A stretch of 64,000 bases of DNA from Thermoanaerobaculia bacterium (lineage in GTDB: Bacteria; Acidobacteriota; Thermoanaerobaculia; Multivoradales; Multivoraceae): the NCBI GenBank assembly GCA_963664405.1, contig OY761158.1, forward strand, positions 5,440,001-5,504,000, in the 5' to 3' direction. Positions 4,081 to 35,635 of this stretch are shown one piece after another; position 1 is the stretch's first letter; each line of letters begins with the position of its first letter. Under the pieces are notes generated by a model that saw only the letters and a list, made by a program, of their open reading frames with translations, was not told the DNA's origin and ran no database searches. Both the position numbers and the translations under genes were made by a program.

Positions 4081-4133
4081 CCCGACCGCCCAGGGCACCC
4101 CACCTCACCGCGTGCTCGTCGCTCGGCTCCTCC

Positions 4134-4193
4134 GGCGTACAGGAGTACGCCTACGTCGCCTCGCTCCTGCGCTGCGGCGATCTGGGGCACCCT
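4134..4193. repeat. Partial 109-bp REP-like unit, left of IS21
   Basis: Identical to the 3' 60 bp of the units at 7584-8034; hairpin GGCGTAC-AGGA-GTACGCC. Confidence 0.9.
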
Positions 4194-4261
4194 TGTTGAT
4201 GGCTGCGAGAAAGCGCATCCCGTTGGCTGCGAGCGCAGTTTCCGGGATGGAGTGAGCTGAG

Positions 4262-4952: not shown

Positions 4953-6461
4953 GTGATCGACGCACAGCTGCGCGGGGAGATCCGTCGTCTGTTCCTGGTC
5001 GAGAAGTGGAAAGTCGGCACGATCGCTCGACAGCTACAGCTGCACCCCTCAACCGTGCGCCGGGCGCTGGAGAAGTCCGGCGTGCTACCCCAGCAGCGAC
5101 GAGGGAGGATGATCGATCCTTACCTGCCGTTCATCGAGCAGGTGCTCGGGACCTACCCACGACTGCCGGCGAGCCGTCTCTACACCATGGTGGTGGAGCG
5201 CGGCTATCCAGGAGGCCCGGATCAGTTTCGCCACCTGGTGGCCTCGATGCGACCGAAGCCCCAGCGCGAGGCGTTTCTCTCGCTGCGCATGCTGCCAGGA
5301 GAGCAGGCGCAGGTCGACTGGGGCCACTTCGGTCGGCTCCGCGTCGGCCGGGCACATCGTCGGCTCTATGCCTTCGTCTTCGTGCTGTCGTTCTCGCGCA
5401 CGGTCTTCGTGCACTTCACCCTCGACACTCGTCTCGAAACCTTCTTGCACGCTCACCAGCTGGCCTTCCACTACGTCGACGGCGTCGTCAGGACCGTTCT
5501 GTACGACAACCTGCGAACCGCGGTGATCGAGCGGCAGGGAACCGCGGTGCGCTTCCATCCCGTGCTGCTCGATTTCGCCAGCCACTACGGCTTCCTTCCC
5601 ACCGTCGCCGCGGTGGCTCGGGGAAATGAGAAAGGCCGCGTCGAGCGCGCAATCCGCTTCCTGCGAAGCTCGTTCTTCGGCGCCCGAACGGTGAGCGATT
5701 TGGATCGTCTGAATCGGCAGGTCCTGGAATGGTGCCAGAGGTCGCAGCGCAGACCCTGGCCGCAGGACCGACAGCGAACCGTGAAAAGCGCCCTGGCCCA
5801 GGAACGACCTCGACTGCTTGAGCTTCCCGGAGACGACTTCGAAACCGACCTGCGACTGGAGATCAAGGTCAGAAAGACGCCGATCGTGCGCTTCGACCTC
5901 AACGACTACTCGGTGCCGCACAGTCATGTGCAGAGGACCGTCACGCTCCTCGCCAGCGAGCATCGGGTGCGGATCCTCGATGGCCAGGAGCTCCTCGCCG
6001 AGCACCCTCGCTCGTACTCCCGGGGCGAGCAGATCCTCGATCCTCAACACCTCGAGGAGCTCCTCGCTCACAAACGCAGGGCCCGACGACACCGGGGCTT
6101 CCATCGGCTGTTTTCCGCTGTGCCTCGATGCGAAGAGCTGATGCAGCAGCTCGCCGAGCGAGGCGAGAACCTCGGAACGCAGACCGCCGGCCTGCTCCGA
6201 CTCCTGCGCCAGTACGGCCCCCAGCGACTCGACAAAGCCGTGCGCGAAGCGCTCCTGAACCACGCACCGCGATTCCAGTCCGTCCGGCTCCTACTCGAAC
6301 GGCACCAGCGCGGCCTCGGTCAGCCCCCGGCTTTACCGGTGCCGCTCAGCCAGGAGCTCCAACAGCGAGATCTCTCCGTGAGACCGCACAACCTCGAGGA
6401 CTACGACCAACTTGGAGGCAACGACGATGGCCCGACCCAGGAAGAGTCCAACGATCCCTGA
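4953..6461 (+). CDS. istA: IS21 transposase IstA
   Basis: N-terminal HTH, PGEQAQVDWG, LYDN, EKGRVERAI; GTG start inferred. Confidence 0.93.
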   Translation: MIDAQLRGEIRRLFLVEKWKVGTIARQLQLHPSTVRRALEKSGVLPQQRRGRMIDPYLPFIEQVLGTYPRLPASRLYTMVVERGYPGGPDQFRHLVASMRPKPQREAFLSLRMLPGEQAQVDWGHFGRLRVGRAHRRLYAFVFVLSFSRTVFVHFTLDTRLETFLHAHQLAFHYVDGVVRTVLYDNLRTAVIERQGTAVRFHPVLLDFASHYGFLPTVAAVARGNEKGRVERAIRFLRSSFFGARTVSDLDRLNRQVLEWCQRSQRRPWPQDRQRTVKSALAQERPRLLELPGDDFETDLRLEIKVRKTPIVRFDLNDYSVPHSHVQRTVTLLASEHRVRILDGQELLAEHPRSYSRGEQILDPQHLEELLAHKRRARRHRGFHRLFSAVPRCEELMQQLAERGENLGTQTAGLLRLLRQYGPQRLDKAVREALLNHAPRFQSVRLLLERHQRGLGQPPALPVPLSQELQQRDLSVRPHNLEDYDQLGGNDDGPTQEESNDP

Positions 6462-16061: not shown

Positions 16062-16589
16062 CTACCATTTGGTCCGGAACTCCTGCAGCACGAACTCGGG
16101 GCTCATGTTCAGGTAGATCTCGGTCGTCGACAGGTGATCGTGGCCGAGCATCATCTGCAAGGCGCGTGTCGAGCCACCCTTGTGAATCCACAGAATCGCA
16201 AAAGTGTGACGCAACACGTGGGGACTGACGGGACGGGAGATCGTCGCCGCGTTGGCGACGCGTCGCACGGTGCGCTGAGTGGTCCGCGCCGAGAAGTCGA
16301 TTGTCTCGTGGAGGATGAAATAGTGCTCGAAAAGAGCCCGCACACGGTCCGAGAGAGGTACAACTCGGAGCTTGGTGCGCTTTCCATAGGGGCCACCCTT
16401 TCCGTACAGCCGGATGCAGCGCTGCTGCCACTGGATCTGGTTCCTGGTCAAGTTGGCCAGCTCGGAGACGCGCATACCCGTCTCGAGAAGAGCCCAGATA
16501 CAGATCTTCTCCTCCATTGTCTCGCAGGCGTTGATGATTCGATCGGCTTCCTCAATCGACAGTGGCTCACGTTTGTGTTGGTATCTCAT
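16062..16589 (-). CDS. Minimal tyrosine recombinase (catalytic domain only, ~175 aa)
   Basis: TGMRVSE (R), GKG (K), HVLRH, LGH, TEIY (Y); too short for an N-terminal core-binding domain. Confidence 0.92.
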   Translation of the reverse strand: MRYQHKREPLSIEEADRIINACETMEEKICIWALLETGMRVSELANLTRNQIQWQQRCIRLYGKGGPYGKRTKLRVVPLSDRVRALFEHYFILHETIDFSARTTQRTVRRVANAATISRPVSPHVLRHTFAILWIHKGGSTRALQMMLGHDHLSTTEIYLNMSPEFVLQEFRTKW

Positions 16590-16663
16590 GGCACAGTCCA
16601 TCAGAGACTGCGCGGGAGGAAATCGCAGCTCCTCCCTGAGAGCCGGCTCTAGAGAGCTTTCTG

Positions 16664-16716
16664 GGTACTCATTCGGATCGAGCTATGCGTGTCGTAGTGC
16701 GCCACATAAAGCGACA
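16664..16716 (+). other. Linker motif plus site S2 (16690-16716)
   Basis: ..CTCATTCGGATCGAGCTATGCG-TGTCGTAGTGCGCCACATAAAGCGACA. Confidence 0.8.
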
Positions 16717-16723
16717 TCCTCTC

Positions 16724-19403
16724 TCAGTCGGCGGGAACGAGATGCTTCAGCTCCTCGGCCCAGTTCAAGACGACCTGGATGTGGGCTGGCGCGCCCTCGA
16801 GAGCCTTGATGAAGACGAAATCTCCGTTGGGTAGGACGTCGTACTGGGGGAAGGGGGACGGGTGTGAGTAGTAGCGCGCCTCGAAGAGGAGCTTCGGCCG
16901 CGAGTAGGTGAAGCTCTGGCCACCTGCCGACTCAGCCACGTCGACCTTCATCAACAGGTCACCGTTACGGTAAAAGAGCTCGCGCCCTTGCGTGCTCCAG
17001 ACGGGGTTTCGACCACCCCCGGTCGAGATTCGATACTTCGCCTCCGAGGTTCCGGCCAGCGGTCGCACGTAGACATTCAGCTGACCGTCTTCGTCGCTGA
17101 CGTACGCCACCCACCGCCCGTCGGGGGAGGATCTAGAGCTGGTCTCGTAGACCGGCGTCGCAAGAAAAGGTCGCGGCTCTGTTTCACCGGCAGGCAGCAT
17201 CATGATGTCGTGGAGGTTTACCGGATCCACCAGCTGGTAGAGAAGATCTCCGTTCGGCGTGAAGGAATGCGCCACCTGCACCGGCCCGGGTGCAGTAACG
17301 GCAATTTCGTCGGCGCTGCCATCGGCCAGCTTCGAGAAGAGGCCGATCCCTCCAGGTCGAGTCGACTGGAAGACCAGGCGATCACCTTCGGCGCTCCACA
17401 CCGCGAAGCCCGATCCCTTGAAGGTCAGCTGCCGCCGACTCTCCTGGGCTAGATCGTAGATCCAGACTTCGCGCCGCCGCAGGTCGGTGGCGTTGTTGCC
17501 GCTGAGGACCGTTACCGATACCTGATCTCCTGCTGGTGAGACGCGAGGCGCCAGATAGCTGTCGGGTGGGATCTCGAGCGGCGTCTCTTTGCCACGGCGA
17601 TCCACTCGTACCAGGGTCGACAGCCGTTGAGCGCTGATCGGCGTGGTTGCAAGGAGGTTTCTCGCGACCGCGTATTGCGACACTCCCCGCGCCACCGGTA
17701 CCGGCGTGCCGGTGACGCTCCCGGCTTCGACATCGAAGGGCACGGCCATCAAGTCGTTGTCGCGGCGAAACAGAAGATGTCCGGTCGATACGACCTGGGG
17801 GTCACGGGCGTCATCGAGCAATGTGAGTCTTCTGCCCGAGGCAACGTCGATGGCGATCAGGCTCGGGAGGCGCGAGGCGGCCACCACCTCCGCGAGGACG
17901 GTCTTTCCGCCGGGGAGTAGCTCGGGTGAGCTCGGTTTCCCTCGCCGCCCTGTTTCGCCGCCAGAGTCTGGAGCGTCCGCGTCGTCCGCGGGGACGGGAG
18001 GATGATAGAGCTCCGCAGTGCCGCCGACGGCCGGTACCACCAGCAACTCGTCCGAATCGAGGGTGGCGAAGACGATGCGATCGTCGTCACCCCAGGCACC
18101 GCCTCGGGGGATTGGGACATCGCAGATCGCTACCGGGGCTCCCCCCCCCCTGGGTCGGCAACCTCTTGAGCTCCGTGCCCTGAAAGAAGGCGATCCACTC
18201 GCCGTCCGGTGAGAACAGCGGAAACTGCGCCCCCCGGGTTCCCGCTAGCGGCTGGCTCGAGGGATCCGCGATTCTGCGGAGATGGAGCTGGTCTTGAGCT
18301 ACGAAGACGAGCTGGAGTCCGTCGGGCGATAGTGCGAGCTCGCGAAGCCCTTCAAGCCCTCTACCGTTGGCGCCGGTGATACTCAGCCGGGCCGGTCGTA
18401 GCGTCACGGGCTTTTCGTTTCGCGGCGCGATCAGGGTCGTCAGCAGCATGCCGGCTGCCAGTCCAACAGCAAGCGCGAGGGCAACACGTCCCCGGACCTT
18501 CGTGGGGGTGACCGCAAACTCGGAACCTGCGTTCGGGTCGGTAGCTGCGTCCCTCGCCTCCTCGATCTCGAAGCGAGCGTCACCGATGTCGCGCAATCTC
18601 TCGCTGGGCTCTCTCTTTAGGCAACGACGGAGCAGACGCTGGATCGCTCTCGGCGTCGGCGCAAGCCTTCCCCAGTCCAACTCTGCCCGAAGAACCGCTG
18701 CCAGTGTGTCGGCCGCATCGTCGCCCTCGAAGGCGCGGCGGCCTGCAAGCGCCTCGTAGAGGCACGCGCCGAAGGCCCATACGTCGGCCCGCTTGTCGAC
18801 CTCCCTGCCCTTCGCCTGTTCGGGCGACATGTACGCCGCGGTGCCAAGGATCTGGCCCTGGCGCGTTGCCGCGTAGGTGAGCGTGGGCGACTCCGAGGAG
18901 TCGCTCTCCGGGCCTGTCGCCGGAGCCATTGCCTTGGCCAGACCGAAGTCAAGAATCTTGACGTTCCCGTCGTCGGTGACCTTGATGTTCGCGGGTTTGA
19001 GATCCCGGTGGATCACGCCCTTTTCGTGGGCTGCCTCTAGACCTTCCGCGATCTGCAAGAAAACGGGCAAGGCTTCATCGACGGGGACAGCACCTCTCTT
19101 GATGCGCTCGGCGAGTGTCTCGCCTTCGACCAGTTCCATGACCAGGAAGTTAGTGTCCCCTTCCTTCTCGAAGCCGTAGAGCGTGGCGATGTTGTTGTGA
19201 TTCAGTGAGGCGAGGACGCGAGCCTCGCGCTCGAAGCGCGCCAGCCGCTCAGGATCTGTGGAAACCTCATCGAGAAGGAGCTTGATCGCTACCTCGCGCC
19301 CGAGCTTGGTGTCCTTGGCGCGATAGACCTCTCCCATTCCTCCCACTCCGAGGCTTGAGACCACTTCATAGTGGCCAAGGCGAGTGCCAGCTTCGAGCGC
19401 CAT
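16724..19403 (-). CDS. Ser/Thr kinase-TM-TolB/PD40 beta-propeller protein 1 (frameshift at C10 run 18141-18150)
   Basis: [20 protein letters not shown]; TM; SPDG repeats; frames join if one base of the run is removed. Confidence 0.88.
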
Positions 19404-19463
19404 GACTTGGCGACATCTTACCCGTCGCCCGTGGGATCAGCGGCTCAGAGAGCTGATTCCCGC

Positions 19464-19540
19464 TGTCGCGATGCACCCGGAACTGCGACAGCAGGAGCCT
19501 ATTCAGATCGAGCTATGGCTGTCGCAGTCCGCCACCAAAG
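19464..19540 (+). other. Site S3 (19464-19490), 29-bp linker and left part of S4 (from 19520)
   Basis: TGTCGCGATGCACCCGGAACTGCGACA; TGTCGCAGTCCGCCACCAAAG then IS. Confidence 0.8.
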
Positions 19541-19671
19541 TCATCATAGAAATGCGCTCGGGTGCGCCCGAGGTCAAGAAGTAGGGAGTTGTGAAGAACG
19601 GTCCTCCGTCGAAAGGGTCAAACTCGAGATGAGTAATTACCCTGGGCTTAGCCCCAAGAAGGAGGACCGAA

Positions 19672-20710
19672 ATGGAACGATATCTCGGACTCGACATGCA
19701 TCGGGACAGCTGCACGGCCGTCGTGCTGAGTGCCGGTGGGAAGAAGACCGGCGAGCAGGTGATGGCGACCGAAACCGCCGCGTTGGTGCAGTACATAAAG
19801 AGTCTCTCGGGAGAGCTTCACGTCTGTGTGGAGGAGGGCGAGTGGAGCGAGTGGGTAGTGGAGATCCTCAATCCATGGGTCTCGCGGGTGGTTTCGGCGT
19901 CGGCTCCGGGTCGCAAGGGTCCTCGCAGCGATGCGATGGACGCTCGCGAGCTCGCCGAGCGTCTGAGGACTCGCCAGACGGGTCCACCGGTCTACAAGGC
20001 GTCTCGGGAATGGGCGCGGCTGCGCGAGGCAGTGCCGCCTGGAGGGCAAGCTGCTCCAGGACGCGGTACGAGCCAAGCAGCGGCTCAAGAGTCTGTATCG
20101 ACGTCGTGGTGTGGCGTGCTTGGGCGAGGAGGTCTACTCCCCGCAGCTGCGCGAGCAGTGGCACGCGAAGCTGCCCGCAAGCGTGCGGCCATCCGCCGAG
20201 CTCCTGGGTCAGGAGCTCGATCACCTCACAGAGCTGCACCAGACCGCCGAGCGGCAGATGTGTGCAGCCGCTGGCAAGTTTCCGATGTGGCGCAAGCTCC
20301 AGACGGCTCCGGGGATCGGCCGCAAACGATCGGCACAACTGCTAGCGATCGTGGTGACCCCTCATCGCTTCCGCACCAAACGACTCTTCTGGTCCTACTG
20401 CGGACTCGGTGTGGTCACGCGCTCGACCTCGGACTGGGTCCGCCAGCCGAACGGTCAGATGGTGCGGGCTCCAGTGATCCAGGCCCGGGGGCTGAACAAA
20501 GCCTGCAACCGTCAGCTCAAGGGGCTCTTTGTGGGCGCCGCGAAGACGGCTCTCCGCTGCCGGCGACCCAATCCCCTGCGCGACGCCCACGAACGGATGG
20601 TCGAGGCCGGGACCAAACCGAATCTGGCCCAGCTCACCATCGCGCGAAAGATCGCTGCAGTGGTGCTGGCCATGTGGAAGAGCGAAAGCGAGTATCGGAT
20701 CATGAGCTGA
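19672..20710 (+). CDS. IS110 transposase, +1 frameshift near 20034
   Basis: YLGLDMH, EEG, SDAMDA (DEDD); APGIG, SYCGLG, IARK; split over two ORFs. Confidence 0.85.
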
Positions 20711-21090
20711 GTCTCACCTTCGACCGCTTCCCTGCCGGGCTCTGGCGCCGAGCGCCGGACCGAGACGGGGATCGGTGCCGGGTCGGACTCAGAGATCCAA
20801 AGGTCGAGGGAGAGTCTCCACTGTCGTCTTGTGCCCCATCATCGATGGGAGTAACTGACATAAGTCTAGGCCCCCTCCCAGGACCAAAAGAAGAGATGGC
20901 CCACGAGGCCCTGATGGAAGGCTGGTCCCAGCATACGAGGACCCACACACTCACTTCTCATCTCACGAGCTCACCCGCAACAGGAACCGATCCCCGAACC
21001 GGAAGACGCCTCGCGGATCCACTCGGTAGAGGAATAGCCCGCGCTCGATCCCAAGACCTCGAGCGCTCAGGGAAACTCCGTCTTGACATC
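20711..21090 (+). ncRNA. Putative seek/bridge RNA region (extent approximate)
   Basis: CTGTCGTCTT (20821-30) is the revcomp of right flank AAGACGACAG; ATGGAAG (20914-20) matches the element right end. Confidence 0.6.
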
Positions 21091-21101
21091 GATTTCTATG
21101 G

Positions 21102-21176
21102 AAGACGACAGCTCGCCGATTTCGGGGCCTATCGCCTTTCAGCTATTCGTGTCGTGGTCCGCCAGATTCTGCGACA
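21102..21176 (+). other. Right part of S4, 39-bp linker and site S5 (21150-21176)
   Basis: AAGACGACA; TGTCGTGGTCCGCCAGATTCTGCGACA. Confidence 0.8.
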
Positions 21177-21182
21177 CGGTGA

Positions 21183-23888
21183 TCAGTCGGTCGAGGTGAG
21201 TCGTTTCAACTCGTCGAACCAATCGAGAACGACGTTGATGTAAGAAGGCGTCGCTTCCGGAGGCTGGAGCATCAGGAAACGATTGCCGTCGGACGTGACA
21301 TCGTAGTGGGAGACCCCCTTGCCGAGCCGAGGGGCCGGCCATCCGCTGAGGAGAACCTGCGCTGGCTCGAACGTGAAGACAGAGCCGTTGGTCTCGACAG
21401 GAATAACCATGAGGAACTCGCCCTGGCGAAAGAACAGTTCCCGTCCGTCGCGGGACCACACCGGGTCCCGGCCGCCGTTTGCGGAGACCGGAGTGGAACC
21501 TACAGGCTCAGGATACGACGTGACGTGGACCTCCTTTTCGCCCGTCACCTCCGACACGTATGCGATCCATCGCCCGTTCGGCGAGAAGGTCGGCGAGTCC
21601 TCGTTGTGCGGACGCGAGAGAAAATCGCTCGGCCCCCCCTCTTCGAGGATGCCAATGTCCGATCCGGCCGGCGTGGTCTCGAAAAAGGCGAGGGCGTTGC
21701 CATCTAGGCCCCAAGAGGTCGGAAACTGACGGCCTGCCCGCGCCAACAACTGCTCCGGCTCCCTCCCCCCATCGGCCGGCACGAAGTGCAGGTCAAAGTG
21801 CGCGGCTCCCCTGACTGCGGAGAATGTGAGTCCGTTACGCTGCTGGTCCCAGACGGGCGTGAGATTGTATCCGTCGGTGGTCAACAACGTCCGGGTGCCA
21901 CTTTCGACATCGATGACCCAGATGTCGGGCGTAATCGTTACGGCGATCTGATTGCCATCCGCCGATAGACGAGGGGTCTTGTAAGGGGCAAGGCCGTCGA
22001 CAACCGGCGTCACCTGCTGGTTCTGTCGATCGACCCAGACGAGCGTCGTGTCCGTCGCGCCGGAATCTTCCGGCGGGTAGGCGAGCGTTCCGGTGTCGGA
22101 CACCGCGAAATGCGCGCCACCCAGCCCGGCGAGATACGGAACCCTCTCGGTGGTGGGAATGGGAGAGCCACTGGCACTCAGCCGGTCGAGATCAAACGCA
22201 ACCACCATCAAGGCCCCATCCTGGGCATATACAAGATGTCCTGTTTGGACGTAGCGGGCACCGTGGGCATTGGGGAGCACCCAGTCCCATTCATTTGACG
22301 CAAGGGACAAGATCGCGGCTCGCGGCCCGTCGTTGTAGTTGATGGTAAACAGGACGTGCTGACCGCCGGGGAGAATCTGGGGATCGAAGTGCCGAAATTC
22401 CCCCACCGCGGCGTCTGGAAGCGTCAGTCGTTCCGGTACTCCGGCACCTGCTGACACTTTGTAGAGGCCAAACGTGAAATGCGAAAAGATGATGGTGTCA
22501 TCACGCCCCCAGCTCGCGCTCGGGAAGAGCCCGATCGTGTCGCAAATCTTCACGGGGGACCCACCCAAAACCGATACTTTCTGCAGCGTCCTGTTGGCAA
22601 AGAAACCGATCCATTCGCCGTTCGGTGAAAAGAATGGAGCTTGCGCGCCTTCGGTACCCGCGATCGGCTGAGCTTCGAACTCGTCGATCGGGCGGAGAAA
22701 CAGCTGCGTCGATCCACCCCCAGGCTGCGCTGCCGTGTAGACCAGGAGTTGACCATTGGGCGAGATTGCGATGGCACTAACGGCGGCCTCCTCGCCCAAC
22801 GACAGCTCCTGGTCGGGCGGAAGCGCGACAACGAGTCGAGCCGGAGACCGCACCTCGGCCTGCCGCAGGGCCCACCAGGCGCCGGCTCCCGCTCCCACTG
22901 CGAACAGCGCGGTCAGCGCCCATGGGACCAGTCGCTGCCAACGGTGAGCCTGAAGCGGCCGTTCGGCCTGGCGTGCATCAACGGCCGGAGCCGCGAAGGC
23001 ATCACCGATCTCGATCCGCGCGTCGGCCTGAAGCTCATCGCCGACCGCCTGAAGCTCGATCCCGACATCCAGGGCCGACTGCCAGCGTCGCTCGGGGTCT
23101 TTGGCCAGGCAGCGGCTCACAACCCAGTCGAGGCGAGGTGGAGCGATCTCTTGGACCGCCCTCAGCGGTCGAGGCTCCGAGGCCATGATGGCGGTGGTCA
23201 GGGAAGCTTGGTTGTCGCCCTGGAAAGGGCGCTCGCCGGTGACCATCTCGTAGAGCACGCAGCCCAGTGCCCAGATGTCGGTGCGGGCGTCGGTGTCCTT
23301 GCTCTCCAACTGCTCCGGTGCCATGTAGAGCTGCGTACCGAGGATCGAGTCCTGACCGGTGATCGGCTGCATCCTCGTCGGTGACTCTGTGTTGGCCGCC
23401 AATGGCTCCGGCTCGATGCTCTTCGCCAGTCCGAAGTCCAGCACCTTGACGCCGGTCTTCGTCAGCATCACGTTGCCGGGCTTCAGATCCCGATGCACCA
23501 CTCCGGCCTTGTGGGCGGCATCGATCGCTGCACCGATCTGGCTCCCGATCTCTAGCGCCTGAGCGATGGGAAGAGCCCCCTTCTTCAACCCCTTCTCAAG
23601 CGTCTCGCCTTCCACCACCTCCATGACCAGGAAGCGAGTGCTGCCGTCTGTGTCGAAGCTGTAAAGCGTGGCGATGTTCGGGTGATTGAGGCCGGCCAGG
23701 ACCTTGGCCTCGCGCTCGAACCGCGCCATCCTCTCAGGATCCCCGGATACCTCCTCCAATAGCAGCTTGACCGCCACCTCACGACCGAGCTTCGTGTCTT
23801 TCGCTCGGTACACCTCTCCCATGCCTCCCGCACCGAGGGAGGAGACGATCTCGTAGTGGCCCAGGATTGTGCCTGGTTTTAGCTGCAT
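21183..23888 (-). CDS. Ser/Thr kinase-TM-beta-propeller protein 2 (intact)
   Basis: 901 aa; GAGGMG, HRDLKPGN, DFG, APE; TM; PD40-like repeats. Confidence 0.92.
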   Translation of the reverse strand: MQLKPGTILGHYEIVSSLGAGGMGEVYRAKDTKLGREVAVKLLLEEVSGDPERMARFEREAKVLAGLNHPNIATLYSFDTDGSTRFLVMEVVEGETLEKGLKKGALPIAQALEIGSQIGAAIDAAHKAGVVHRDLKPGNVMLTKTGVKVLDFGLAKSIEPEPLAANTESPTRMQPITGQDSILGTQLYMAPEQLESKDTDARTDIWALGCVLYEMVTGERPFQGDNQASLTTAIMASEPRPLRAVQEIAPPRLDWVVSRCLAKDPERRWQSALDVGIELQAVGDELQADARIEIGDAFAAPAVDARQAERPLQAHRWQRLVPWALTALFAVGAGAGAWWALRQAEVRSPARLVVALPPDQELSLGEEAAVSAIAISPNGQLLVYTAAQPGGGSTQLFLRPIDEFEAQPIAGTEGAQAPFFSPNGEWIGFFANRTLQKVSVLGGSPVKICDTIGLFPSASWGRDDTIIFSHFTFGLYKVSAGAGVPERLTLPDAAVGEFRHFDPQILPGGQHVLFTINYNDGPRAAILSLASNEWDWVLPNAHGARYVQTGHLVYAQDGALMVVAFDLDRLSASGSPIPTTERVPYLAGLGGAHFAVSDTGTLAYPPEDSGATDTTLVWVDRQNQQVTPVVDGLAPYKTPRLSADGNQIAVTITPDIWVIDVESGTRTLLTTDGYNLTPVWDQQRNGLTFSAVRGAAHFDLHFVPADGGREPEQLLARAGRQFPTSWGLDGNALAFFETTPAGSDIGILEEGGPSDFLSRPHNEDSPTFSPNGRWIAYVSEVTGEKEVHVTSYPEPVGSTPVSANGGRDPVWSRDGRELFFRQGEFLMVIPVETNGSVFTFEPAQVLLSGWPAPRLGKGVSHYDVTSDGNRFLMLQPPEATPSYINVVLDWFDELKRLTSTD

Positions 23889-23949
23889 GAATTGAGCAGC
23901 ATCTTACTCGCCGCCTCTGGGATCTACCGCTCAGAGGCTGAATCTGGCG

Positions 23950-24042
23950 TGGCGTCTTCCACCATGAAAGACGACAGCCCCTCTGCTCAGAGGCTCATCT
24001 GCTTTCAGCTATACGTGTCGTCCTTCGCCACATTTCACGACA
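23950..24042 (+). other. Site pair S6 (23950-76) and S7 (24016-42) with 39-bp linker
   Basis: TGGCGTCTTCCACCATGAAAGACGACA; TGTCGTCCTTCGCCACATTTCACGACA. Confidence 0.8.
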
Positions 24043-24050
24043 TGCTTCGC

Positions 24051-26728
24051 TCAGTCGGTGGGAACCAGACGCTGCAGCTCCTCGAACCAGTTCTGGACCA
24101 GGACGACGTGACTGCTCGAGCCCCCCTCGGTCGTCTCCGCCGGTTTGACCATCAGGAACCTCTGACCGTCAGGGTGGATGTCGTACATGCGGCCGATTCT
24201 GACGGCATAGCTCCCCGTGAAGAGCTCCTGTGGGCTCCCAGCCTCGAACGCGGGCTCGGTTGTGACCGGCACTGCCATCAGCCGATCGCCGGCACGATAG
24301 AAGATCTCGCTCCCGTCGGGCGACCATAGCGGTTCGCTGCCACCGCCCGCTGAGATCGGGAAGCGACCGCCGTCGACCTCAGGGAATGGCCTCACATAGA
24401 TCTCGTCCTCGCCTGATTCGTCCGACTGGTAGGCCAGGAAACGACCGTCGGGTGAGATCTCTCCACTCCGCTCATTGATATCCGTGGCGAGAAGCAGCTG
24501 TGGCGCTCCCTCGCCTTCCAGCGACAGCACCCCCAGATCGAATCCCCCCCCTGCGCCGACGCGGTAGACGAGAAGCTTGCCATCGGGAGAGATCGACGAG
24601 GGAAATAGACTGTCTGGGCTGTCGGTGAGAGGCCTTACAGCGCCCGTACCGTCAGCCGCCCTCTGGTAGACGTCGAAGGTCCCGCCACGAACCGAGCTGT
24701 ACACCACTTCGCGGCTGTCAGGAGTCCAGATCGAATACATGTCTGGTCCCGGATCGCGGGTCAACCGGTCCAGGGTCTCCCGACCGAGATCCCAGATCCA
24801 CACATCCTGTTCTTCATCCTGGGAAGAGACCGCTACCCGCTGTCCATCCGGAGAGATGCGGGGAAGCAGGTAGGGCCGAATCGGGGCCAAGAGGGCCTCC
24901 TCCCTCCCGTCCCGTCCCACCCAGACCAGGGCCGTCTGCACCCCTCCCCCTGCGCCACCCGTGACGTACACCAAGGATCCGTCCTGCGAGAAGTCGAAGT
25001 TCACAGCACCTGTGGGCTTCGTGCCGACGCCTTCCAAGACGGGCACCGGATTTCCCCGGACCTCAAGACTTCCTGCATCGAAGGCCACCGCACGTAACGT
25101 ACCGCTCACTCCATAGACCAGGTGCCCAGTGGGCACGTACCGGGCGCCGGCCCCTCCAGAGACCAGGACCTTCCGCTCCCCGGTGGCGAGAGATAGGGCC
25201 ACGATCTGCGTCTGCTCGACGTTCGCGCTCGTAAATACCGTGAAAAGGACGGCCTCGCCGCCGGGTAGTACATCGGGGAAGCGATAGCTACTCTCTCCTC
25301 TCTCGGGATCTGGCGCTACCAGCAGCTCCGGCTCGCCGCCTCCCCCCGACATCCGATAGAGGCCCTCGGAGATGGAGCTGAAGATGATGGTGTCGTCCGC
25401 GCCCCAGCTCACACCGGGGAGAATGCCGCCGGGTATGTCGGCCAAGGTCACGATTGGTCCCCCGAGAATGGAGACCTTCTTGAGAGTTCCGCCGGATGCG
25501 AAGCCGACCCAGGCCCCGTCAGGTGAGAGGAAAGGAGTCCTCGCGCCCTCCGTGCCTTCCAGGTGGGACCCGACGAGGCTGCCCACGTGGCGAACATAGA
25601 GAGAGCCTCCGCTCTGGTAGACCACCGCACGACCGTCGGTTGTCACCGCCAGATCGCGCCCGTTTGGGAGAACGCTCACCGGCGCGCTGGGAGCGGCGCT
25701 CAGCACCGAGCGAACCACGGGGCGCTCGGTCGGCAGTGGAGCAGGCTTCAGCATCCAGACTGCGCTGGCGATCACTGCGACGGCAGCGAGGGCGGCGAGA
25801 ATGAGGGGGACGGGACTGCGCTTCTCCGCCATAACCGCCCCGGGGGTCTCCTCGTCCTCCGGAGCCGCCATGACTTCTTCGATCTCGATGCGGGCATCAC
25901 CGATATCGTGCAGCCTCTGCCTTGGGTCCTTGCTGAGACACCGCCGCAACAGTTCTCTGAGCTTTCTGGGCGTGTCGCCAGGGAGCCCTTCCCAGCCCGG
26001 GTCAGACTTGAGCACCGACGCCAAGGTGGTGGAAGCGTCCTCGCCCTCGAAGACTCGCTTGCCGCTCAGCGCCTCGAACAGACAGACCCCGAAGGCCCAC
26101 ACATCGGCGCGCTTATCGACGGTCTTTCCTCGCGCCTGCTCGGGAGCCATGTAGGCGGCTGTGCCGAGAATCTGACCCCGTTGAGTTGCTGCAAGAGTGA
26201 GGGTCGGAGATTCGGACAAGCGCCCTCTCCGGTGGCACTAGCTTCCACAGCCATCGCCTTGGCCAACCCGAAATCGAGGAGCTTCACGGCACCCTCGTCC
26301 GACACTTTGATGTTCGCGGGCTTCAGATCGCGATGGATGACGCCCTTCTCGTGGGCTGCCTCCAGCCCCTCAGCGATCTGCAAGAAGACGGGCAATGCTT
26401 CGTCGACTGGCATGGCTCCTCTCTTGATGCGATCCGCTAGAGTCTCGCCCTCCACCAGTTCCATGACCAGGAAGCTGGTGTCGCCTTCCCGCTCGAAGGC
26501 GTGAAGGCTGGCGATGTTCTTGTGGTTGAGCGAGGCCAGAACCCGCGCCTCCCGCTCGAGGCGAGCTAGGCGCTCCGGGTCAGAGGAGACCTCGTCAAGC
26601 AGGAGTTTGACCGCCACCTCGCGCCCGAGCTTCGTGTCGCGAGCTCGGTAGACCTCTCCCATGCCCCCGGCACCGAGGGAGGAGACCACTTCGTAGTGGC
26701 CGAGGCGAGTGCCAGCTTCTAGCGCCAT
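24051..26728 (-). CDS. Ser/Thr kinase-TM-beta-propeller protein 3 (1-nt frameshift near 26220)
   Basis: ORFs 26066-26728 and 24051-26219 join after DFG into one kinase-propeller protein. Confidence 0.88.
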
Positions 26729-26787
26729 GACTTGGTGACATCTTACCCGTCGCCCGGGGGATCAGCGGCTCAGAGCTCGATCTGTGC

Positions 26788-26880
26788 TGTCGCACCTCAC
26801 CGAATTTCACGACAGCCCCTTCTCTCAGAGGGTTATCTGCTTTCGGCTATACCTGTCGCAGAGCGCCAGGGATTGCGACA
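26788..26880 (+). other. Site pair S8 (26788-814) and S9 (26854-880) with 39-bp linker
   Basis: TGTCGCACCTCACCGAATTTCACGACA; TGTCGCAGAGCGCCAGGGATTGCGACA. Confidence 0.8.
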
Positions 26881-26923
26881 GACAGTGGCAGCTCTGTCGG
26901 CCCCTACTCTGGAGGGAGAGATC

Positions 26924-27385
26924 CTATTTGCGCTCATGAACAAGATCGATTTGGAACTCGCGGCGAATCTCTGCGAGCGGCCGGCTCAAGAAGGTGTCGA
27001 AGTTGGACCAAGGCCACTTGGCCGGCATGCGATGACCTCGCCACGCAGCCTTGACGAGGATCGGTACTGACCTGGCGAAGGTGACCAAAGCTGTCCGCCA
27101 GCCAACCTTTGCCATGATGTCTTTGTGCTCCTCGACCCTGAAGAAGCCAAGAAACTGACGGATGCTCACAGAGGTACCGAAGAGCGTCCATGTGTCCGTC
27201 AAGGCCTCGCCAGCCAGGCTAGTGCTACAGCCGAACAAGACATGGGCCGTGTCGTGGCACCGAAAGAACTCAGCGCCGAGTCCTCCGGGATCTCGGGCTG
27301 AGGCGAGCCCTGGGTTTGCAGCCCAATACTCCATCAGCCCCTCGGCCAGAGTCTGCCGTGATTCCTGCTCCTGATACCTTGGCAA
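26924..27385 (-). CDS. Hypothetical protein with Coq4-like HDxxH motif
   Basis: HDTAHVLFG..SLAGEA; C-terminal RPLAEIRREF; AAGGAG RBS. Confidence 0.6.
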   Translation of the reverse strand: MPRYQEQESRQTLAEGLMEYWAANPGLASARDPGGLGAEFFRCHDTAHVLFGCSTSLAGEALTDTWTLFGTSVSIRQFLGFFRVEEHKDIMAKVGWRTALVTFARSVPILVKAAWRGHRMPAKWPWSNFDTFLSRPLAEIRREFQIDLVHERK

Positions 27386-27481
27386 GGCCGAACTCTCCTT
27401 CGCGGAGCTCTCACGCCATCAACCAGCGCGTAGTCTAGCGTCCGACCACAGCAATAGGACGCTCTTTCGGCACGCCCTCAC

Positions 27482-27508
27482 TGTCGTAGTGCGCCACATT
27501 TCGCGACA
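27482..27508 (+). other. Site S10
   Basis: TGTCGTAGTGCGCCACATTTCGCGACA. Confidence 0.8.
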
Positions 27509-27512
27509 CCAT

Positions 27513-27571
27513 TCAGTCGGTGGGCCGCGTGGCGTTTCAACTCGTCGAAGCAGTTGAGGACGACATAGCTG
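27513..27571 (-). pseudogene. 3'-terminal remnant of another kinase-propeller gene
   Basis: YVVLNCFDELKR..PTD* matches paralog tails such as VLNWAEELK/VLDWFDELKR..PTD*. Confidence 0.65.
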
Positions 27572-27586
27572 CAATGCTTAAGCCGC

Positions 27587-28054
27587 TTAGAGATCCAGCA
27601 ATGGTCCTACGATCTCCATGTTGTACTTCTCGGCCAATTCTTCGGCTTTGGCAACGTAAGCTTCTGTGTCCGTGACATCCAGATCAACCGCCTCGTCAAA
27701 GAACTGCTCGAATCCTGGTGGAGAAATGATGGCGAGTAATTTGGCAGGTTCCTGCCCGGCGCGACACCAGGCGTGAACCGTTCCCCTGGGGATGAGGACG
27801 AAAGAACCAGCTTTCGCTATAGAAGTGGTTTCTCCCAACAGTACTTTGACCTCTCCCTCCAAGACGTAGAAGGCTTCCTCCTCGGTTTTGTGTATATGCT
27901 GTGGCGGTCCGTCGCCGGTTAGCTCGATCTCCAAAAGTGAGTACGCACCACCGGTGTCTGCACCAACCACCTTAAGCGTTATCTCGTGGCCTGGCACTGG
28001 AACTGTCTTGCCCTCTCCTGGGCCGAGTACAACATTCCCATCGTCAATAGACAT
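27587..28054 (-). CDS. Cupin domain protein
   Basis: PPQHIHKTEEEAFYVLEG, PRGTVHAW; AAGGAG RBS. Confidence 0.9.
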   Translation of the reverse strand: MSIDDGNVVLGPGEGKTVPVPGHEITLKVVGADTGGAYSLLEIELTGDGPPQHIHKTEEEAFYVLEGEVKVLLGETTSIAKAGSFVLIPRGTVHAWCRAGQEPAKLLAIISPPGFEQFFDEAVDLDVTDTEAYVAKAEELAEKYNMEIVGPLLDL

Positions 28055-28224
28055 ACATTGTTCTCCTTAGTTCTCCCATGGAACACAAAAGATTGGGACT
28101 GACGGCTTTGGTGAATCAGGCCTGGGCGACCATCGCAACCATCCACTTTAGATGAGTGAACAGGAGTATACGTCTGCGCCGGGTCTGGTCCCGCTACCCT
28201 TCTGGTGGGGGACCCGATTCGCGC

Positions 28225-28316
28225 CGTCGTAATGCGCCGAATTTCACGACACACCTCTGCTCGAAGGCTTATCTGCTTCCGGCTATGCGTGTCGCGGTCC
28301 GCCACATTTCACGACA
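28225..28316 (+). other. Site pair S11 (28225-51) and S12 (28290-316) with 38-bp linker
   Basis: CGTCGTAATGCGCCGAATTTCACGACA; TGTCGCGGTCCGCCACATTTCACGACA. Confidence 0.8.
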
Positions 28317-28326
28317 CGCCTTCGCC

Positions 28327-31000
28327 TCACGAGCCCCCCTCGGAGAACATCTCGAGCACCTTGGCCCGCCAGTTCTGGACGAAGACTAGACGCTCCTCCT
28401 CGGCCTCTGCCGCCTGGATCATGAGGAAGCGACCGTCGGGGTGGATGGCGTAGTTCTGGAAGCTCAAGGGTGTGCGCAGGTAATCATCCACGAAGAGTGG
28501 CTCGGGACGCCGGGGGGACGAAGCGCTCGCCGGAGATCTCGACCGGGAGCGTCATCATGTGGGTCGGGCTGCGGTAGAGGATCTCGCTGCCTTCGGGGGA
28601 GAAATCGGGCTCCCCGCCGCCGTCGAAGGTGAGCTGGCGCGGCTCGCCGGGACCGGGGAAGGGCCGGATCCAGACGTTCTCCTGTCCCTGAATCACCACC
28701 GAGTAGGCGATCCAACGTCCGGCGGGGTGGAAGCGGGCGGCGGGGACCACGTTCCCCTCGAGGAGGGTCTCGGACTCTCCGCTCTCCCGGTCGAAGATCC
28801 AGAGTCCGGAGACATCGATGTTCGTGTAGAGCATGTAGCGCCCGTCCGGGGAGAAATCCAGCGGTACCTGCGGGTGCTCCGACGGTACGAGCCGCTCCGC
28901 CGGGGCACTGCGATCGGCAGGCTGGATGTAGAGCTGAAAGCGTCCCTCGAGGCGATCCGACATGAAGACGATCTCCTGGCCGTCGGGGGGCACCCACATC
29001 AAGCCAGCGTTGCGATTCCCCTCCTGGGTCGGGCGGGTCCAGGAGCCGGTCCCGAGGTTGAGCATCCACTGCTCTAAGTCCCCCCTGGCGTTGCGGGCGC
29101 CCACCGAGATCCGGCGCCAGTCCTGGGAGTGTCGCGGCGACGCGAAAGGCTTGCGCTCCGGCGCCACCTCCTCGATGTCCCGGCCGTCCCGACTCACCCA
29201 AACCAGCCGGGACACGCTCCGACTCCCGAGAACGTAGAGCAGGTCGCCCGAGTCGGCGAGCGCGAAGCGGCCCCTATCGACGCCAACGCCGAGGAGCGGC
29301 GCCACCCCGTTCTCGACCTGACGCGCCGGGCCGAGGAGGGCGGCGGTCTCGGGATCGATCGGCGCCGCCCACAGTCCGCCCTCGCGATAGAAAACCAAAA
29401 CCCCCGGATCGAGATAGAACGGCTGCGCCCCAGGGAGGAGAACCCGTTCCTTGCCAGTCTCGAGGTCCACCGCCTGAACATCGCTCCAGAAGCCCTCCTG
29501 ACGCTCGGATCTCAAGTGGGCCAGGACGACCCTCTCACCAGGCAGAAGCGCGGTGCCGATGCCATGCCCCACCTGCTCGGAAACACCCCCGTCCGCCGGA
29601 ATCCGCCATAGCTCGCGAGACGTGGGGCTTCCTATCTCAGGAGTGTAGTAGAGGAAGCCATCGCGCCCCCAGACACCGGTCCTGCGGATCCCTTCCACCA
29701 GAGCGCTGGCGCCTCCACCCCCCACGGGAAGCGTCTTCAGACTGCCCCCGGCCACGAAAGCAAGCTGCTGGCCGTCGGGCGAGAAGATCGGGCGGAGGGC
29801 ACCGTCGCTGCCGGAGATGCGATCGGCAACCAGGGAGTCGAGAGAGCGCCGGTAGAGGCTGGTCTCGGCTCCCTCGCGACGGCCGAAGACCACCATCCGA
29901 CCGTCCGGGGAGAGCACGAAGGGCTGATCCGGAGTTGCCTCGAGGTCGAGAGCCGTGACCGTCCAGGTGTCGGCCGAAGTGGCGTCGCTGGCCACGTTCT
30001 CCTCCCCACCACGGTCCAGGACGTAGCCGAGGGCGAGACCGACCACCAGGGCGAGGAGGGCGAGTGCTCCGGCGAGGACCGCCGACACCGGTCGCCTGGT
30101 AGGCGCCGCCTCGCCACCGGCTGGCGCGTCGATGTCCGGCTGCTCGAGCACTCCTCGGATCTCGATCCGGACGTCGGCGATGTCGTGAAGGCGCTCCCGC
30201 GGGTCCCTCGTCAGACACCGTCGGAGCAGTGTCCTGATCGGCCTCGGCGTCGCCGGGGGGAGCTTGCCCCAGTCGATCTCCGCTCTGAGCACCGCTGCCA
30301 GCGTGTCGGCGGCATCGTCGCCGCGGAACGCCCTCGATCCCGTCAGCGTCTCGTAGAGACACACGCCGAAGGCCCAGACGTCGGCCCTTCTATCGACCTC
30401 TTTCCCCTTGGCTTGCTCAGGCGACATGTAGGCCGCCGTGCCGAGGATCTGGCCTCGGAGCGTGGCCGCCTGGGTCAGCGTGGGCGATTCCGAAGGGTCG
30501 CTCTCCGGCCCCGTCGCCGGAGCCATTGCCTTGGCCAGACCGAAGTCAAGAATCTTGACGTTGCCGTCGTCGGTGACCTTGATGTTCGCGGGTTTGAGAT
30601 CCCGGTGGATCACTCCCTTCTCATGGGCTGCCTCGAGGCCCTCGGCGATTTGGAGAAACAGAGGGATCGCCTCATCGACGGGAATCGGGCCGTGAGCGAT
30701 CCGATCGGCCAGAGTCTCACCCTCCACCAGTTCCATGACCAGGAAGCCCGTGTCACCTTCCCGCTCGAAGGCGTGGAGGCTGGCGATGTTCTTGTGGTTG
30801 AGCGAGGCGAGAACTCGCGCCTCCCGCTCGAAGCGAGCTAGACGCTCCGGGTCAGAGGAGACCTCGTCGAGCAGGAGTTTGACCGCTACCTCGCGACCGA
30901 GCTTCGTATCCTTCGCTCGATACACTTCTCCCATGCCTCCTGCACCGAGGGAGGAGAGCACTTCGTAGTGGCCGAGGCGAGTGCCAGCTTCTAGAGCCAT
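28327..31000 (-). CDS. Ser/Thr kinase-TM-beta-propeller protein 4 (frameshift at G6 run 28512-28517)
   Basis: Kinase motifs intact; tail [23 protein letters not shown] continues in another frame to 28327. Confidence 0.85.
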
Positions 31001-31060
31001 TGACTTGGCGACATCATACCCGTCGCCCGGGGGATCAGCGGCTCAGAGCTCGATCTGTGC

Positions 31061-31130
31061 TGTCGCACCTCACCCAAAAGTGCGACAGCGGGAGGCTTAT
31101 TCGCTTCGAGCTATTCTTGTCGTAGTCCCA
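31061..31130 (+). other. Site S13 (31061-87), 30-bp linker and half-site S14 (from 31118)
   Basis: TGTCGCACCTCACCCAAAAGTGCGACA; TGTCGTAGTCC without a right arm. Confidence 0.75.
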
Positions 31131-31214
31131 AGGGGTCCCTGTGGCTCATGCAGCTTGGTGGCGTCTCTGCCCGAAGTCGGCGGACAGAGCTGCTCTTGCG
31201 GCCAGTGTTCGGGT

Positions 31215-32309
31215 TCACTCGAATACTTCGAGCTCCCTTCCGCCGGAGCGCAGCACGACGTCGACGTACTTGGTGTCCGCTGTCGTACCGCCGAAAACAC
31301 CCACCGAGATGAACCACACACCAACGACGCGCTCTGGTGGATCGCCGCCTACCGCCATTTCATAGTCGTCGAGGATCTTGCGGGTGTGGCTCTGCCACAC
31401 GCCGACGTCCTCACGGCCGCTCTGGAGCACGATGTGGGTCTCGCGCCTGTCCCACCAAGGCAGCGGGCAGCGGAAGCTCGTCACGGCCTCGAGGTAGGGG
31501 CTTCGCATCCACGTGATGTCCTGCCCGTTGTCGAACTCGAGGGCGATGCTCGAATAGTCGTGGTGGCTGGCCTCTGTCTCCGGGCCCAGGGAGTGCAGGT
31601 CGTCGTAGCGCCAGGCGAAGCTGATCTCGCTCGATCGATCGAGCGGCAGATCCACCGCCTTCTTGATGATCCCGCCCGACGAGGCGGCGTTGCCCCAGAC
31701 ACCGTGCCGCTCGCCGTCGTCCCAGGCCTCGAAGACATCGGCTGTGCGGAGTAGGTAACACACGGAACGGAAACCCGCAGGAAGCTCGCGAGCGGCGTCG
31801 AGGTCGGCCTTGGCGCGTGCCAGGACTTCGTGTGCGACGAGGCCTCCTAGGGCGTCGCCGGGCGCCGATCTCCACGCCACAGTCAGCAGGTCGTGACCGG
31901 GCGCTTGGCGCGGAGCCGCGCTGAGCGAGGCCGGCGGCGTGCCGTCACAGTGCTCCCAGCGTACGTCCCTGGGCAGTGAGATCACTTCGATTTCACCCGT
32001 CGCCCAGGCGAGAAACGAGTAGCTCTCCCCTCCGAGATTTTCGATGTCGGCCCGCCCGATGCGCACCCAGACACGGGCACCAACATCCTCGCCGAAACCG
32101 AAGAGAGTCACCCCTTGGCCTTCCTCCACCTCGACACCTGTGCCCGTCCAGCCGTCGTGGGCGGTAGGCAGCCGAACGCTGGCAAGGGAGACTACGGCCG
32201 GCTCGCCTCGCAGCAGATGCTCCAGAGACGCGCTCTGTGCGGGCGCGACAGAGGGAAGACAGACCACCACTAGCCACTCAAGAAGTCCTATTCGCAACCT
32301 TGTACGCAC
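31215..32309 (-). CDS. DUF3047-like secreted protein
   Basis: HHDYSSIALEFDNGQDITW, FRCPLPWWDRRETHIV, VWFISV; GTG start inferred from AGGAGG. Confidence 0.7.
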   Translation of the reverse strand: MRTRLRIGLLEWLVVVCLPSVAPAQSASLEHLLRGEPAVVSLASVRLPTAHDGWTGTGVEVEEGQGVTLFGFGEDVGARVWVRIGRADIENLGGESYSFLAWATGEIEVISLPRDVRWEHCDGTPPASLSAAPRQAPGHDLLTVAWRSAPGDALGGLVAHEVLARAKADLDAARELPAGFRSVCYLLRTADVFEAWDDGERHGVWGNAASSGGIIKKAVDLPLDRSSEISFAWRYDDLHSLGPETEASHHDYSSIALEFDNGQDITWMRSPYLEAVTSFRCPLPWWDRRETHIVLQSGREDVGVWQSHTRKILDDYEMAVGGDPPERVVGVWFISVGVFGGTTADTKYVDVVLRSGGRELEVFE

Positions 32310-32466
32310 TCCTATCCTCCTGGCACGGCCGGTCCGCGTCTCCGGAGACGGGGCTACCCCAGCCGTGTACTCGACATAGAAAATCTTGTTGATGATTTTA
32401 CTCCTCGTCGGTCCGAGCAACGACATGTCGGTCACGTACATTGGAAAAGGACCTGCGCTCGACTAC

Positions 32467-32493
32467 TGTCGCAGTCCGCCACATTTCACGACA
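32467..32493 (+). other. Site S15
   Basis: TGTCGCAGTCCGCCACATTTCACGACA, 3 bp from the kinase 5 stop. Confidence 0.8.
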
Positions 32494-32496
32494 CGC

Positions 32497-35214: not shown

Positions 35215-35272
35215 GACTTGGCGACATCTTACAGTCGCCCGTGGGATCAGCGGCTCAGAGCTCGATCTGTGC
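35215..35272 (-). promoter_or_regulatory. Conserved kinase leader with putative -10 TAAGAT
   Basis: Similar copies at 19404-19463, 26729-26787, 31001-31060; diverged copy at 23889-23949. Confidence 0.55.
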
Positions 35273-35299
35273 TGTCGCACCTCACCACAGAAGACGACA
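35273..35299 (+). other. Site S16
   Basis: TGTCGCACCTCACCACAGAAGACGACA. Confidence 0.8.
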
Positions 35300-35431
35300 C
35301 GCCTGCCCGCCAGAGCCCGAAAATGCTGGATTCTCCTTGCATCCAAAAGGGAAAAGACGACACCGTGACGCCTGTTCTGCGAAGGTGCGACACCTTCGTC
35401 CTGGGTTGCTCATCGCAAACGGAGGGAGCGT

Positions 35432-35497
35432 TGGTGGAAGCGCAGGGGAATCGAACCCACCCTCGACGAGCGACTCGTCGAACAGACGGTTTTGAAG
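35432..35497 (-). tRNA. selC: 3' half of tRNA-Sec (anticodon loop to CCA); att-like remnant, not a complete tRNA
   Basis: CTTCAAA loop (UCA), long variable arm TCGACGAG/CTCGTCGA, GGGTTCGATTCCC, TGCGCTTCCACCA; no pairing 5' half. Confidence 0.7.
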
Positions 35498-35635
35498 CTC
35501 GCGGGGGCTCGACGTAGGATGTGGAGCCGGCCACAATTCAAGGCTGCTTTTGGAAAATGGAGTCGAAGCGGAGCTTGACCGCGAGCATCGCGGACAGGCT
35601 GAGTGCGAAGAGACTCAGGAGAGAGGGTGGTGACA

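Follow-up and report, generated by a model that had tools for sequence, protein, structure and literature searches.

What takes an insertion sequence (IS) into one copy of a short repeat that recurs throughout its host genome, and what does such a choice say about the repeat? This question was raised by a 64,000-nt stretch from a Thermoanaerobaculia bacterium (assembly GCA_963664405.1, contig OY761158.1, positions 5,440,001 to 5,504,000), hereafter called the window, in whose numbering coordinates are given unless another locus is named. The original prediction described an IS1111-type element inserted in, and specialised on, a cassette site, with a readable guide to one arm of that site. Our results very probably identify it as an IS of the IS110 superfamily with an IS1111-type layout, whose 3' region encodes a two-loop bridge/seekRNA that carries guides. 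Three sets of observations were made: the anatomy of the element, an RNA structure with covariation, and covariation between guide and flank across homologs.

The IS occupies positions 19541-21104 on the forward strand (1564 bp, counting one copy of an AAG triplet common to both junctions). It could be aligned end to end with three full-length metagenome relatives, L032, L036 and L038, which are 82-83% identical to it over all 1564 nt. To its left lies the larger part of the interrupted repeat, TGTCGCAGTCCGCCACCAAAG (19520-19540), composed of the TGTCG arm, the GTCCGCCA centre and AAG at the end, and the IS continues with TCATCAT from 19541. Its right end, TTGACATCGATTTCTATGGAAG, stops at 21104 and is followed by ACGACAG (21105-21111), i.e. 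the ACGACA arm (21105-21110) plus a G. The triplet is present at 19538-19540 and again at 21102-21104. When the flanks are rejoined without the IS, a 27-nt TGTCG-N17-CGACA member of the repeat family is restored, as originally claimed. The IS stands 6 bp from one end of this repeat and displays no target duplication. Its non-coding regions are of unequal length, 131 nt on the 5' side and 394 nt on the 3' side. Perfect 9-bp subterminal inverted repeats, CATAGAAAT (19545-19553) and ATTTCTATG (21092-21100), were found near both ends; depending on how the shared bases are assigned, the extensions beyond them are 7 and 1 bp (AAG counted on the left) or 4 and 4 bp (AAG counted on the right), where 7 (or 6) bp on the left and 3 bp on the right are expected for IS1111. 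If IS621 is taken as a model, the last two bases of the triplet, AG, are probably the crossover core. In an element present in five copies (L013, L023, L026, L027 and L028), the junction triplet is CAC on the left and AAC on the right.

Joining the IS ends creates TTGACA-N17-CATCAT, in agreement with the original description. The -35 hexamer of this predicted circle-junction promoter (21083-21088) is located 13 nt before AAG, and the -10-like hexamer (19542-19547) comes to lie 17 nt from it only in the joined form. They match the sigma-70 hexamers at 6/6 and 4/6 positions, respectively, and a promoter scan of the linear IS gave no sigma-70-like site. The geometry was retained elsewhere: most relatives kept the spacing of TTGACA, 13 nt and a three-base junction triplet, and -10 equivalents (CATTAT, CAATAT or CATATT) were recognized by eye at their left ends.

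The 3' regions of the window element, of the 57%-identical L005 and of L002 and L003 (two copies of a 68%-identical relative, termed B, in the same genome) could be aligned and displayed two stem-enclosed internal loops, each with a hairpin. These four sequences served as the basis of a covariance model. With it, the RNA was detected 3' of the transposase gene in 19 of 20 further loci from genomes of the same phylum; the exception, L008, is a contig with only the 5' part of the gene. All 12 metagenome contigs that had been retrieved by a pattern taken from 20866-20901 contained the RNA as well. Altogether, the RNA was recorded in 34 loci besides the window, always 3' of the transposase gene. 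Changes on both sides occurred in 21 of 32 pairs (18 distinct sequences), and 90.7% of the cells could pair, versus 73.2% after shuffling (none of 500 shuffles reached the observed value) and 33-46% with slid partners. The target-binding module (20806-20877) is formed by a stem, 20806-20817 with 20866-20877, around an internal loop and a hairpin (20833-20851). This hairpin lies between the two target guides and all eight of its helix pairs have changed on both sides. The donor-binding module (20881-20928) comprises a GGACC/GGTCC stem (20881-20885 and 20924-20928), an internal loop and a GGCC/GGCC hairpin (20898-20910). The region 20806-20928 is thus predicted to encode a two-loop bridge/seekRNA. 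No bridge-RNA family was matched in Rfam between 19300 and 21400 (all families, E <= 10), where three chance-level matches were obtained.

The right target guide is CTGTCGTCTT, found exactly at 20821-20830 on the forward strand and complementary to top-strand AAG plus ACGACAG; its reverse complement occurs exactly at 21102-21111 and at 23968-23977. Taken by itself the 10-mer match is weak, AAGACGACAG being present 26 times in the genome where 9.3 occurrences are expected. What raises it above chance is its place on the 5' side of the target loop, whose bases change in step with the right flank among homologs. Right junctions were set without using this loop, from the -35 hexamer and the donor guide, and each loop was then compared with its own 11 nt (triplet plus 8); four of 35 loci had no usable right junction. 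Complementarity between loop and own right flank reached at least 9 of 11 positions in 22 of 31 loci, versus 21 of 900 mismatched pairs. In a simpler test that needed no junction rule, 13 of 23 loci had exact runs of at least 8 nt, all of which began at the IS end, versus 7 of 482 cross pairs. Where the loop of a close relative had changed, its flank had changed accordingly. The guide fitted at 11/11 positions in L032 (right flank GCGACACC) and L038 (TTGACA...), at 10/11 in L029 and L033 (both TTGACA...) and in L040, at 9/11 in L039 and L035, and at 8/11 in L036. The copy from a further run, X8, differs from the window at 20820 and 20821, within the right guide. The last downstream TTGAC was also tried as a marker of the right junction; it pointed to wrong sites in L005, L015, L038, L033 and L029, and the resulting counts were not used.

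Could the match be due to chance, or the loop be conserved for RNA structure only, with no role in target choice? CTCCACTGTCGTC is indeed kept in the B element, whose flanks fit less well (7/11 in L002 and L003), and with 26 genomic copies of its target a short match is not rare. Yet, the loop differs in at least 15 other elements, where each version is complementary to its own flank and in register at the IS end, and close relatives change one to three loop bases along with the flank (L032, L038, L029, L033, L039 and L040). This explanation is largely refuted and we regard it as extremely improbable. The 10-mer was therefore retained as a target guide, and the covariation between non-coding region and targets, without which the original prediction was to be abandoned, was recovered.

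In the donor loop, ATGGAAG (20914-20920) repeats the four bases with which the IS ends on the right, followed by AAG. At the corresponding position, 20 of 23 loci displayed matches of 7-9 nt to their own right end, which agrees with its proposed role as a (left donor) guide for the right end. The left target guide position, ACATAAG (20858-20864), has the same sense as the left flank plus AAG and matches the occupied site at 5/7 positions; the original description as a weak candidate was appropriate, the position being right and the match weak. It was placed correctly, as were the hairpin and ATGGAAG. By eye, 11 of 21 loci (L003, L012, L014, L016, L018, L024 and five copies of the L013 element) had exact matches of 7-9 nt that ran up to the junction; for L019 and L025 the longest match was at another place in the flank. 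The cross-control was noisy (at least 7 nt in 49 of 396 cross pairs), so that position at the junction is the argument for a left guide. The window 7-mer resembles the commonest bases at repeat positions 15-21, and a T>A change at 20861 in run X9 would lift its fit to 6/7. Among window-type (A-like) relatives these 7-mers differed from one another, as judged by eye. A perfect fit to both guides was not found anywhere in the genome, where the best left match is 7/9. We read these data as a long right guide that recognizes the conserved arm, with left-flank mismatches that were tolerated or have drifted. Conceivably, A-like elements choose their targets mainly by this one long guide; their left-guide 7-mers are hypervariable and agree poorly with their own flanks. 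One-sided matches have been described for IS621 (bioRxiv 10.64898/2026.08.31.748434).

By analogy with ISEc11, ISPa11 and IS621, the RNA would be made and bound by the transposase, a circle would form in which the junction promoter is active, and strand exchange would presumably follow a comparable order. In the donor loop, 20914-20920 would pair with the IS right end in its circular form, while the 3' side of the target loop (20858-20864) would base-pair, left of the crossover, with the bottom strand. Recombination at the shared core (AG within AAG) may then have placed the IS in the 27-bp repeat, the perfectly matching guide reading the conserved arm of the repeat and the other guide its variable part.

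Several observations weigh against this reading. Guide and flank fitted poorly in L034 (4/11), L016 (5/11), L027 (6/11), and L002, L003 and L017 (7/11). The left-guide match of the window consists of AAG and two more distant bases, both mismatches adjoining the core, and all four A-like relatives with a left flank fitted poorly beyond the triplet (by eye). For the IS left end, no consistent complementarity that could represent a guide was found, in either sense or at either end. Neither a circle junction nor a precise-excision joint was present in the assembled contigs of runs X1, X3, X8 and X9, and among the sequencing runs listed for this stretch there was no RNA run. The alignment used for the pair counts had been fitted to the covariance model and so favours the structure of that model. 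Three further points bear on family placement. First, the intact relative scored 118.5 bits with NCBIfam NF033542 (IS110 equivalog), below the cut-off of 140, in a full-length alignment (4-337 of 344). Second, the nearest annotated plasmid genes were 26-30% identical and labelled IS110 family or IS1328. Third, the subterminal repeat is short: its 9 bp fall inside the 7-17 bp given in PMC11208160 and below the usual 11-13 bp of PMC11187229.

The structures of IS621 and ISCro4 were matched at E values of about 5e-6 only, and the intact relative is a divergent member of the IS110 superfamily. Membership in IS1111, as far as the sequences tell, would follow from layout rather than from phylogeny. 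Subterminal inverted repeats are present, as is a longer 3' non-coding region encoding the guide RNA, and the order of guides is IS1111-like in all homologs, with the right guide (20821-20830) lying 5' of the left-guide position (20858-20864). In IS1111 seekRNAs the complement of the top strand stands 5' of the match to the bottom strand (PMC11187229). In IS621 both target guides include the core; on its left side the guide reads like the top strand, and on its right side the guide is complementary to the top strand (PMC11208160). A lineage of the IS110 group with a downstream non-coding region, instead of family IS1111 proper, is a possibility that we take seriously while leaning against it. 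IS110-type groups with a 3' non-coding region do exist (PMC11187229), and the low identity to annotated plasmid-borne IS110-family genes, the lack of an IS4321/IS5075-type match at E <= 1e-10, the short subterminal repeat and a GL-P----SG motif that reads GLGVVTRSTS, with neither P nor G, would all suit it. On the other hand, subterminal repeats are present, the guide order is that of IS1111, one weak match is annotated as IS1328, a member of the IS1111 group, the transposase of 344 aa is within the 330-350 aa quoted for IS1111, and T at the serine position has been reported for IS1111 transposases (PMC11187229). Of the original label, the IS110 family with an IS1111-type layout was thus kept, and IS1111 membership was reduced to an argument from layout, at 26-30% identity to annotated genes.

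The DEDD transposase of the window copy was found as two halves in two frames. The N-terminal, DEDD/RuvC-like part lies in frame 1 (19672-20034; PF01548, 28.8 bits for the fragment, cut-off 29). The C-terminal part lies in frame 2 (20036-20710) and includes the GLGVVTRSTS motif and a PF02371 match at 20111-20707 (41.2 bits, cut-off 21.3). Between them, one extra C in GTGCCGCC, within a CC run, causes a +1 frameshift (20035-20036). The corresponding bases of the B element are GTGCGCC, one base is missing at 20035 in the contigs of runs X8 and X9, and L032, L036 and L038 display open frames of 357-359 aa. The intact B relative gave 42.3 bits with PF01548 and 40 bits with PF02371. The D, E, D and D residues were located by eye in GLDMH, VEEGE and SDAMDARE. 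The nucleophile position was occupied by S or T in 12 of 12 correctly framed sequences (wrong-frame rows L003, L005 and L017 were left out of the transposase alignment); it is T in the window copy, and the S of the B relative aligns with the serine of the IS621 ESG motif. The P and G of the GL-P----S(T)G motif are not conserved. The window copy thus reads as a frameshifted version of an element that exists in intact form elsewhere, and because of this frameshift it is probably dead.

The copy might still be mobile, either mobilised in trans by the transposase that the two related elements encode, which is 64% identical, or misjudged owing to an assembly error. Its guide RNA region and both ends are intact, the extra base falls in a CC run, and ISPa25 and ISKpn4, with transposases 46% identical, have very similar predicted seekRNAs, so that an RNA need not be tied to close relatives (PMC11187229). 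However, assembled contigs of X1 and X3, two runs from two studies, carry the same base (0 and 1 differences from the window over 19421-21400), although one of the two may be the source sample. Furthermore, the window element is single-copy in its genome, the donor guide of the B element (TTGGGAA) is unlike the right end of the window element, and no excision or circle joint occurred in the contigs of the four runs. Continued mobility is therefore unlikely in our opinion. Two joints considered as excision products, 19485/21106 and 19497/21141, were rejected; with their short sides or additional letters, they resemble paralogous repeats.

No second copy of the window element was found in the genome. 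The two B copies, each with an intact 344-aa gene, are both inserted in members of the 27-bp repeat family, in opposite orientation relative to its asymmetric GGCG/CGCC centre and 10-11 bp from the end of the site, versus 6 bp for the window IS. They differ at 5 of 1566 positions, two of them inside guide loops, and their transposases are 100% identical. Comparison of L002 (1663-1802) with L003 (2651-2790) located one differing base per target-guide loop (CCAGTG/CCACTG and GGCGGAAA/GGCGCAAA). The 3' non-coding region of L003 is itself interrupted, downstream of its guide RNA, by an ISL3-family element (2939-4231, at about 780.6-781.9 kb of G000:C1; PF01610, 256 bits) with the 8-bp duplication GGAAAGAT. 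A search of the genome contigs with a single protein yielded one partial locus, L011. It is a remnant whose right flank does not match its loop, and it was left out of the junction counts. At the right junction of L016 (G099:C64), the IS copy lies inside a partial copy of the same IS, exactly at the left-target-guide DNA, its right flank fitting the right guide at 5/11 positions; this looks like a natural one-sided self-target.

What is the repeat in which these elements sit? Eleven intact TGTCG-N17-CGACA 27-mers occur in the window and 118 with the 17-nt spacer in the 6.78-Mb genome, versus 6-32 for each spacer of 12-16 and 18-23 nt. Among the 118, 89 resemble one reference copy at 17 or more of the 27 positions and form about seven co-oriented clusters. 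The clusters coincide with arrays of kinase-PD40 paralogs (56 blastp matches in the genome) and were found in the window at 16690-35299 and in G000 at 17.6-41.3, 599-618, 748-779, 3945-3980, 4990-5004 and 6507-6523 kb. Sites within 12 nt of the stop of an open reading frame (ORF) of at least 250 aa number 20 of 89. Only the 5-bp arms are invariant, a sixth pair being formed in 61 of 89 sites and no longer stem being present. Directly beside the IS, one kinase-PD40 paralog is split in two ORFs on the reverse strand (16724-18046 and 18087-19403), which correspond to residues 503-901 and 1-443, respectively, of the 901-aa paralog next to it and thus probably represent a disrupted gene.

Six of seven window- or B-type elements with both flanks interrupt TGTCG-N16/17-CGACA (window, L002, L003, L035, L032 and L036; not L038). 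Among elements with a right flank only, the CGACA arm is present in one of five (L040) and absent in L029, L033, L034 and L039. Close relatives with two loop bases changed occupy other sequences (L038, L029 and L033, next to TTGACA..., and L039). The clade therefore favours the repeat in several organisms and retargets with few base changes. The original notion of an IS specialised on this site agrees with the six elements in the same repeat family, and not with L038, L029, L033 and L039.

The repeat had been called a cassette site, i.e. the recombination site of a gene-cassette system, on which the IS would be specialised as some IS1111 elements are on attC. Co-oriented arrays in about seven genome regions speak for this view, as do units that hold unrelated genes besides the kinase paralogs (a cupin at 27587-28054, a DUF3047 protein at 31215-32441 and an ORF with no Pfam match at 26924-27385), a small tyrosine-recombinase ORF just past the last site of the window array, and the same type of site in three unrelated metagenome contigs. 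The 27-bp length and inverted ends also recall Xer-type sites. But with 5-bp arms as its only invariant part, the repeat is unlike attC and its long imperfect stem. Most array genes belong to a single family of kinase-PD40 paralogs, in keeping with an element conserved within a gene family that has been duplicated; few sites closely follow a stop codon, and neither an excised cassette nor an empty site was seen in the data at hand. Targeting by the IS carries no weight here, since elements of IS1111/IS110 have been reported to target repetitive extragenic palindromic sequences (REPs), attC sites and transposon inverted repeats (PMC11187229; PMC11208160). For the same reason, it does not follow from the insertion that the site is functional, as had been suggested. 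A cassette recombination site is thus quite improbable, and the label was dropped in favour of an abundant landing site. We would place equally low the broader proposal that the 27-bp elements are sites of an undescribed cassette system with small tyrosine recombinases, whose arrays the IS clade would exploit through guides that read the conserved arm. Candidate identities of the repeat are a cassette site, a regulatory element and a REP-like repeat.

Two tyrosine-recombinase genes were recorded near such sites. A 179-aa ORF on the reverse strand (16062-16601) encodes the catalytic domain only (PF00589, 100 bits) and is situated 89 bp beyond the leftmost site of the window array, on the same strand as the array genes. 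Another ORF, of 312 aa and also matching PF00589, belongs to a 2.6-kb element that carries a second long ORF of 414 aa. This element is present in five copies, 94.6-99.9% identical (G000:C1 at about 34789-37391 and near 43.0, 597.3, 615.6 and 887.6 kb); one of its ends lies 15-17 nt from a 27-bp site in three copies and not in the others.

The window IS is probably a clear, if unremarkable, representative of a known type of RNA-guided IS, in the form of a dead copy. It adds a divergent environmental clade, seen in marine-sediment data, to the RNA-guided IS110/IS1111 recombinases, although this clade may already be contained in published supplementary lists of ISs and predicted RNAs (PMC11187229, PMC11208160). 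Guides, core, ends and predicted junction promoter can be read directly from the sequence, and a natural series of variants pairs changed guides with changed targets. This is raw material for the engineering of bridge recombinases, for instance the right guide of 10-11 nt and the apparent tolerance of left-guide mismatches. The 27-bp repeat, as an abundant and conserved landing site across organisms, is worth a study of its own.

Among known systems, ISPa11, a member of family IS1111 that targets Pseudomonas aeruginosa REPs, is similar in its DEDD transposase and 3' seekRNA region, in the complement of the top strand preceding the match to the bottom strand, and in its target, a short, abundant and partly palindromic intergenic repeat (PMC11187229). 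The window element differs from it by an apparently very distant transposase, its 9-bp subterminal repeat and another target sequence, and it is known from sequence alone. ISKpn4, ISPst6 and ISPa25 insert at one end of integron attC sites (PMC11187229). Likewise, the window IS lies close to an end of its recurring site, which is found behind genes in co-oriented arrays, and has guide matches to this site. For attC, however, recombination is proven and the imperfect stem is long, in contrast to the 5-bp invariant arms of the 27-bp repeat. A structural requirement contributed by inverted arms of the target has been reported for ISPpu10 (bioRxiv 10.64898/2026.03.19.712850). With the IS621 bridge RNA (PMC11208160) it shares two internal loops, for target and donor, guides that overlap at a short core, a bottom-strand guide to the left and a top-strand guide to the right in each loop, and a promoter at the circle junction, predicted in the window IS. 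Unlike in IS621, the RNA is located 3' and not 5' of the gene, the order of guides within the loop is reversed, the core is AG (AAG being shared) instead of CT, the right target guide measures 10-11 nt, and a right donor guide was not found. Finally, the natural re-direction described between ISEc11 and ISXne4, in which stems were kept while guide bases and flanks changed together (PMC11187229), has its counterpart among the window element, L032, L038/L029/L033, L040 and L039, as well as between the two element types of the genome studied here. In contrast to ISEc11 and ISXne4, these two types share one target repeat family, in which their orientations are opposite and their insertion positions within the repeat differ.

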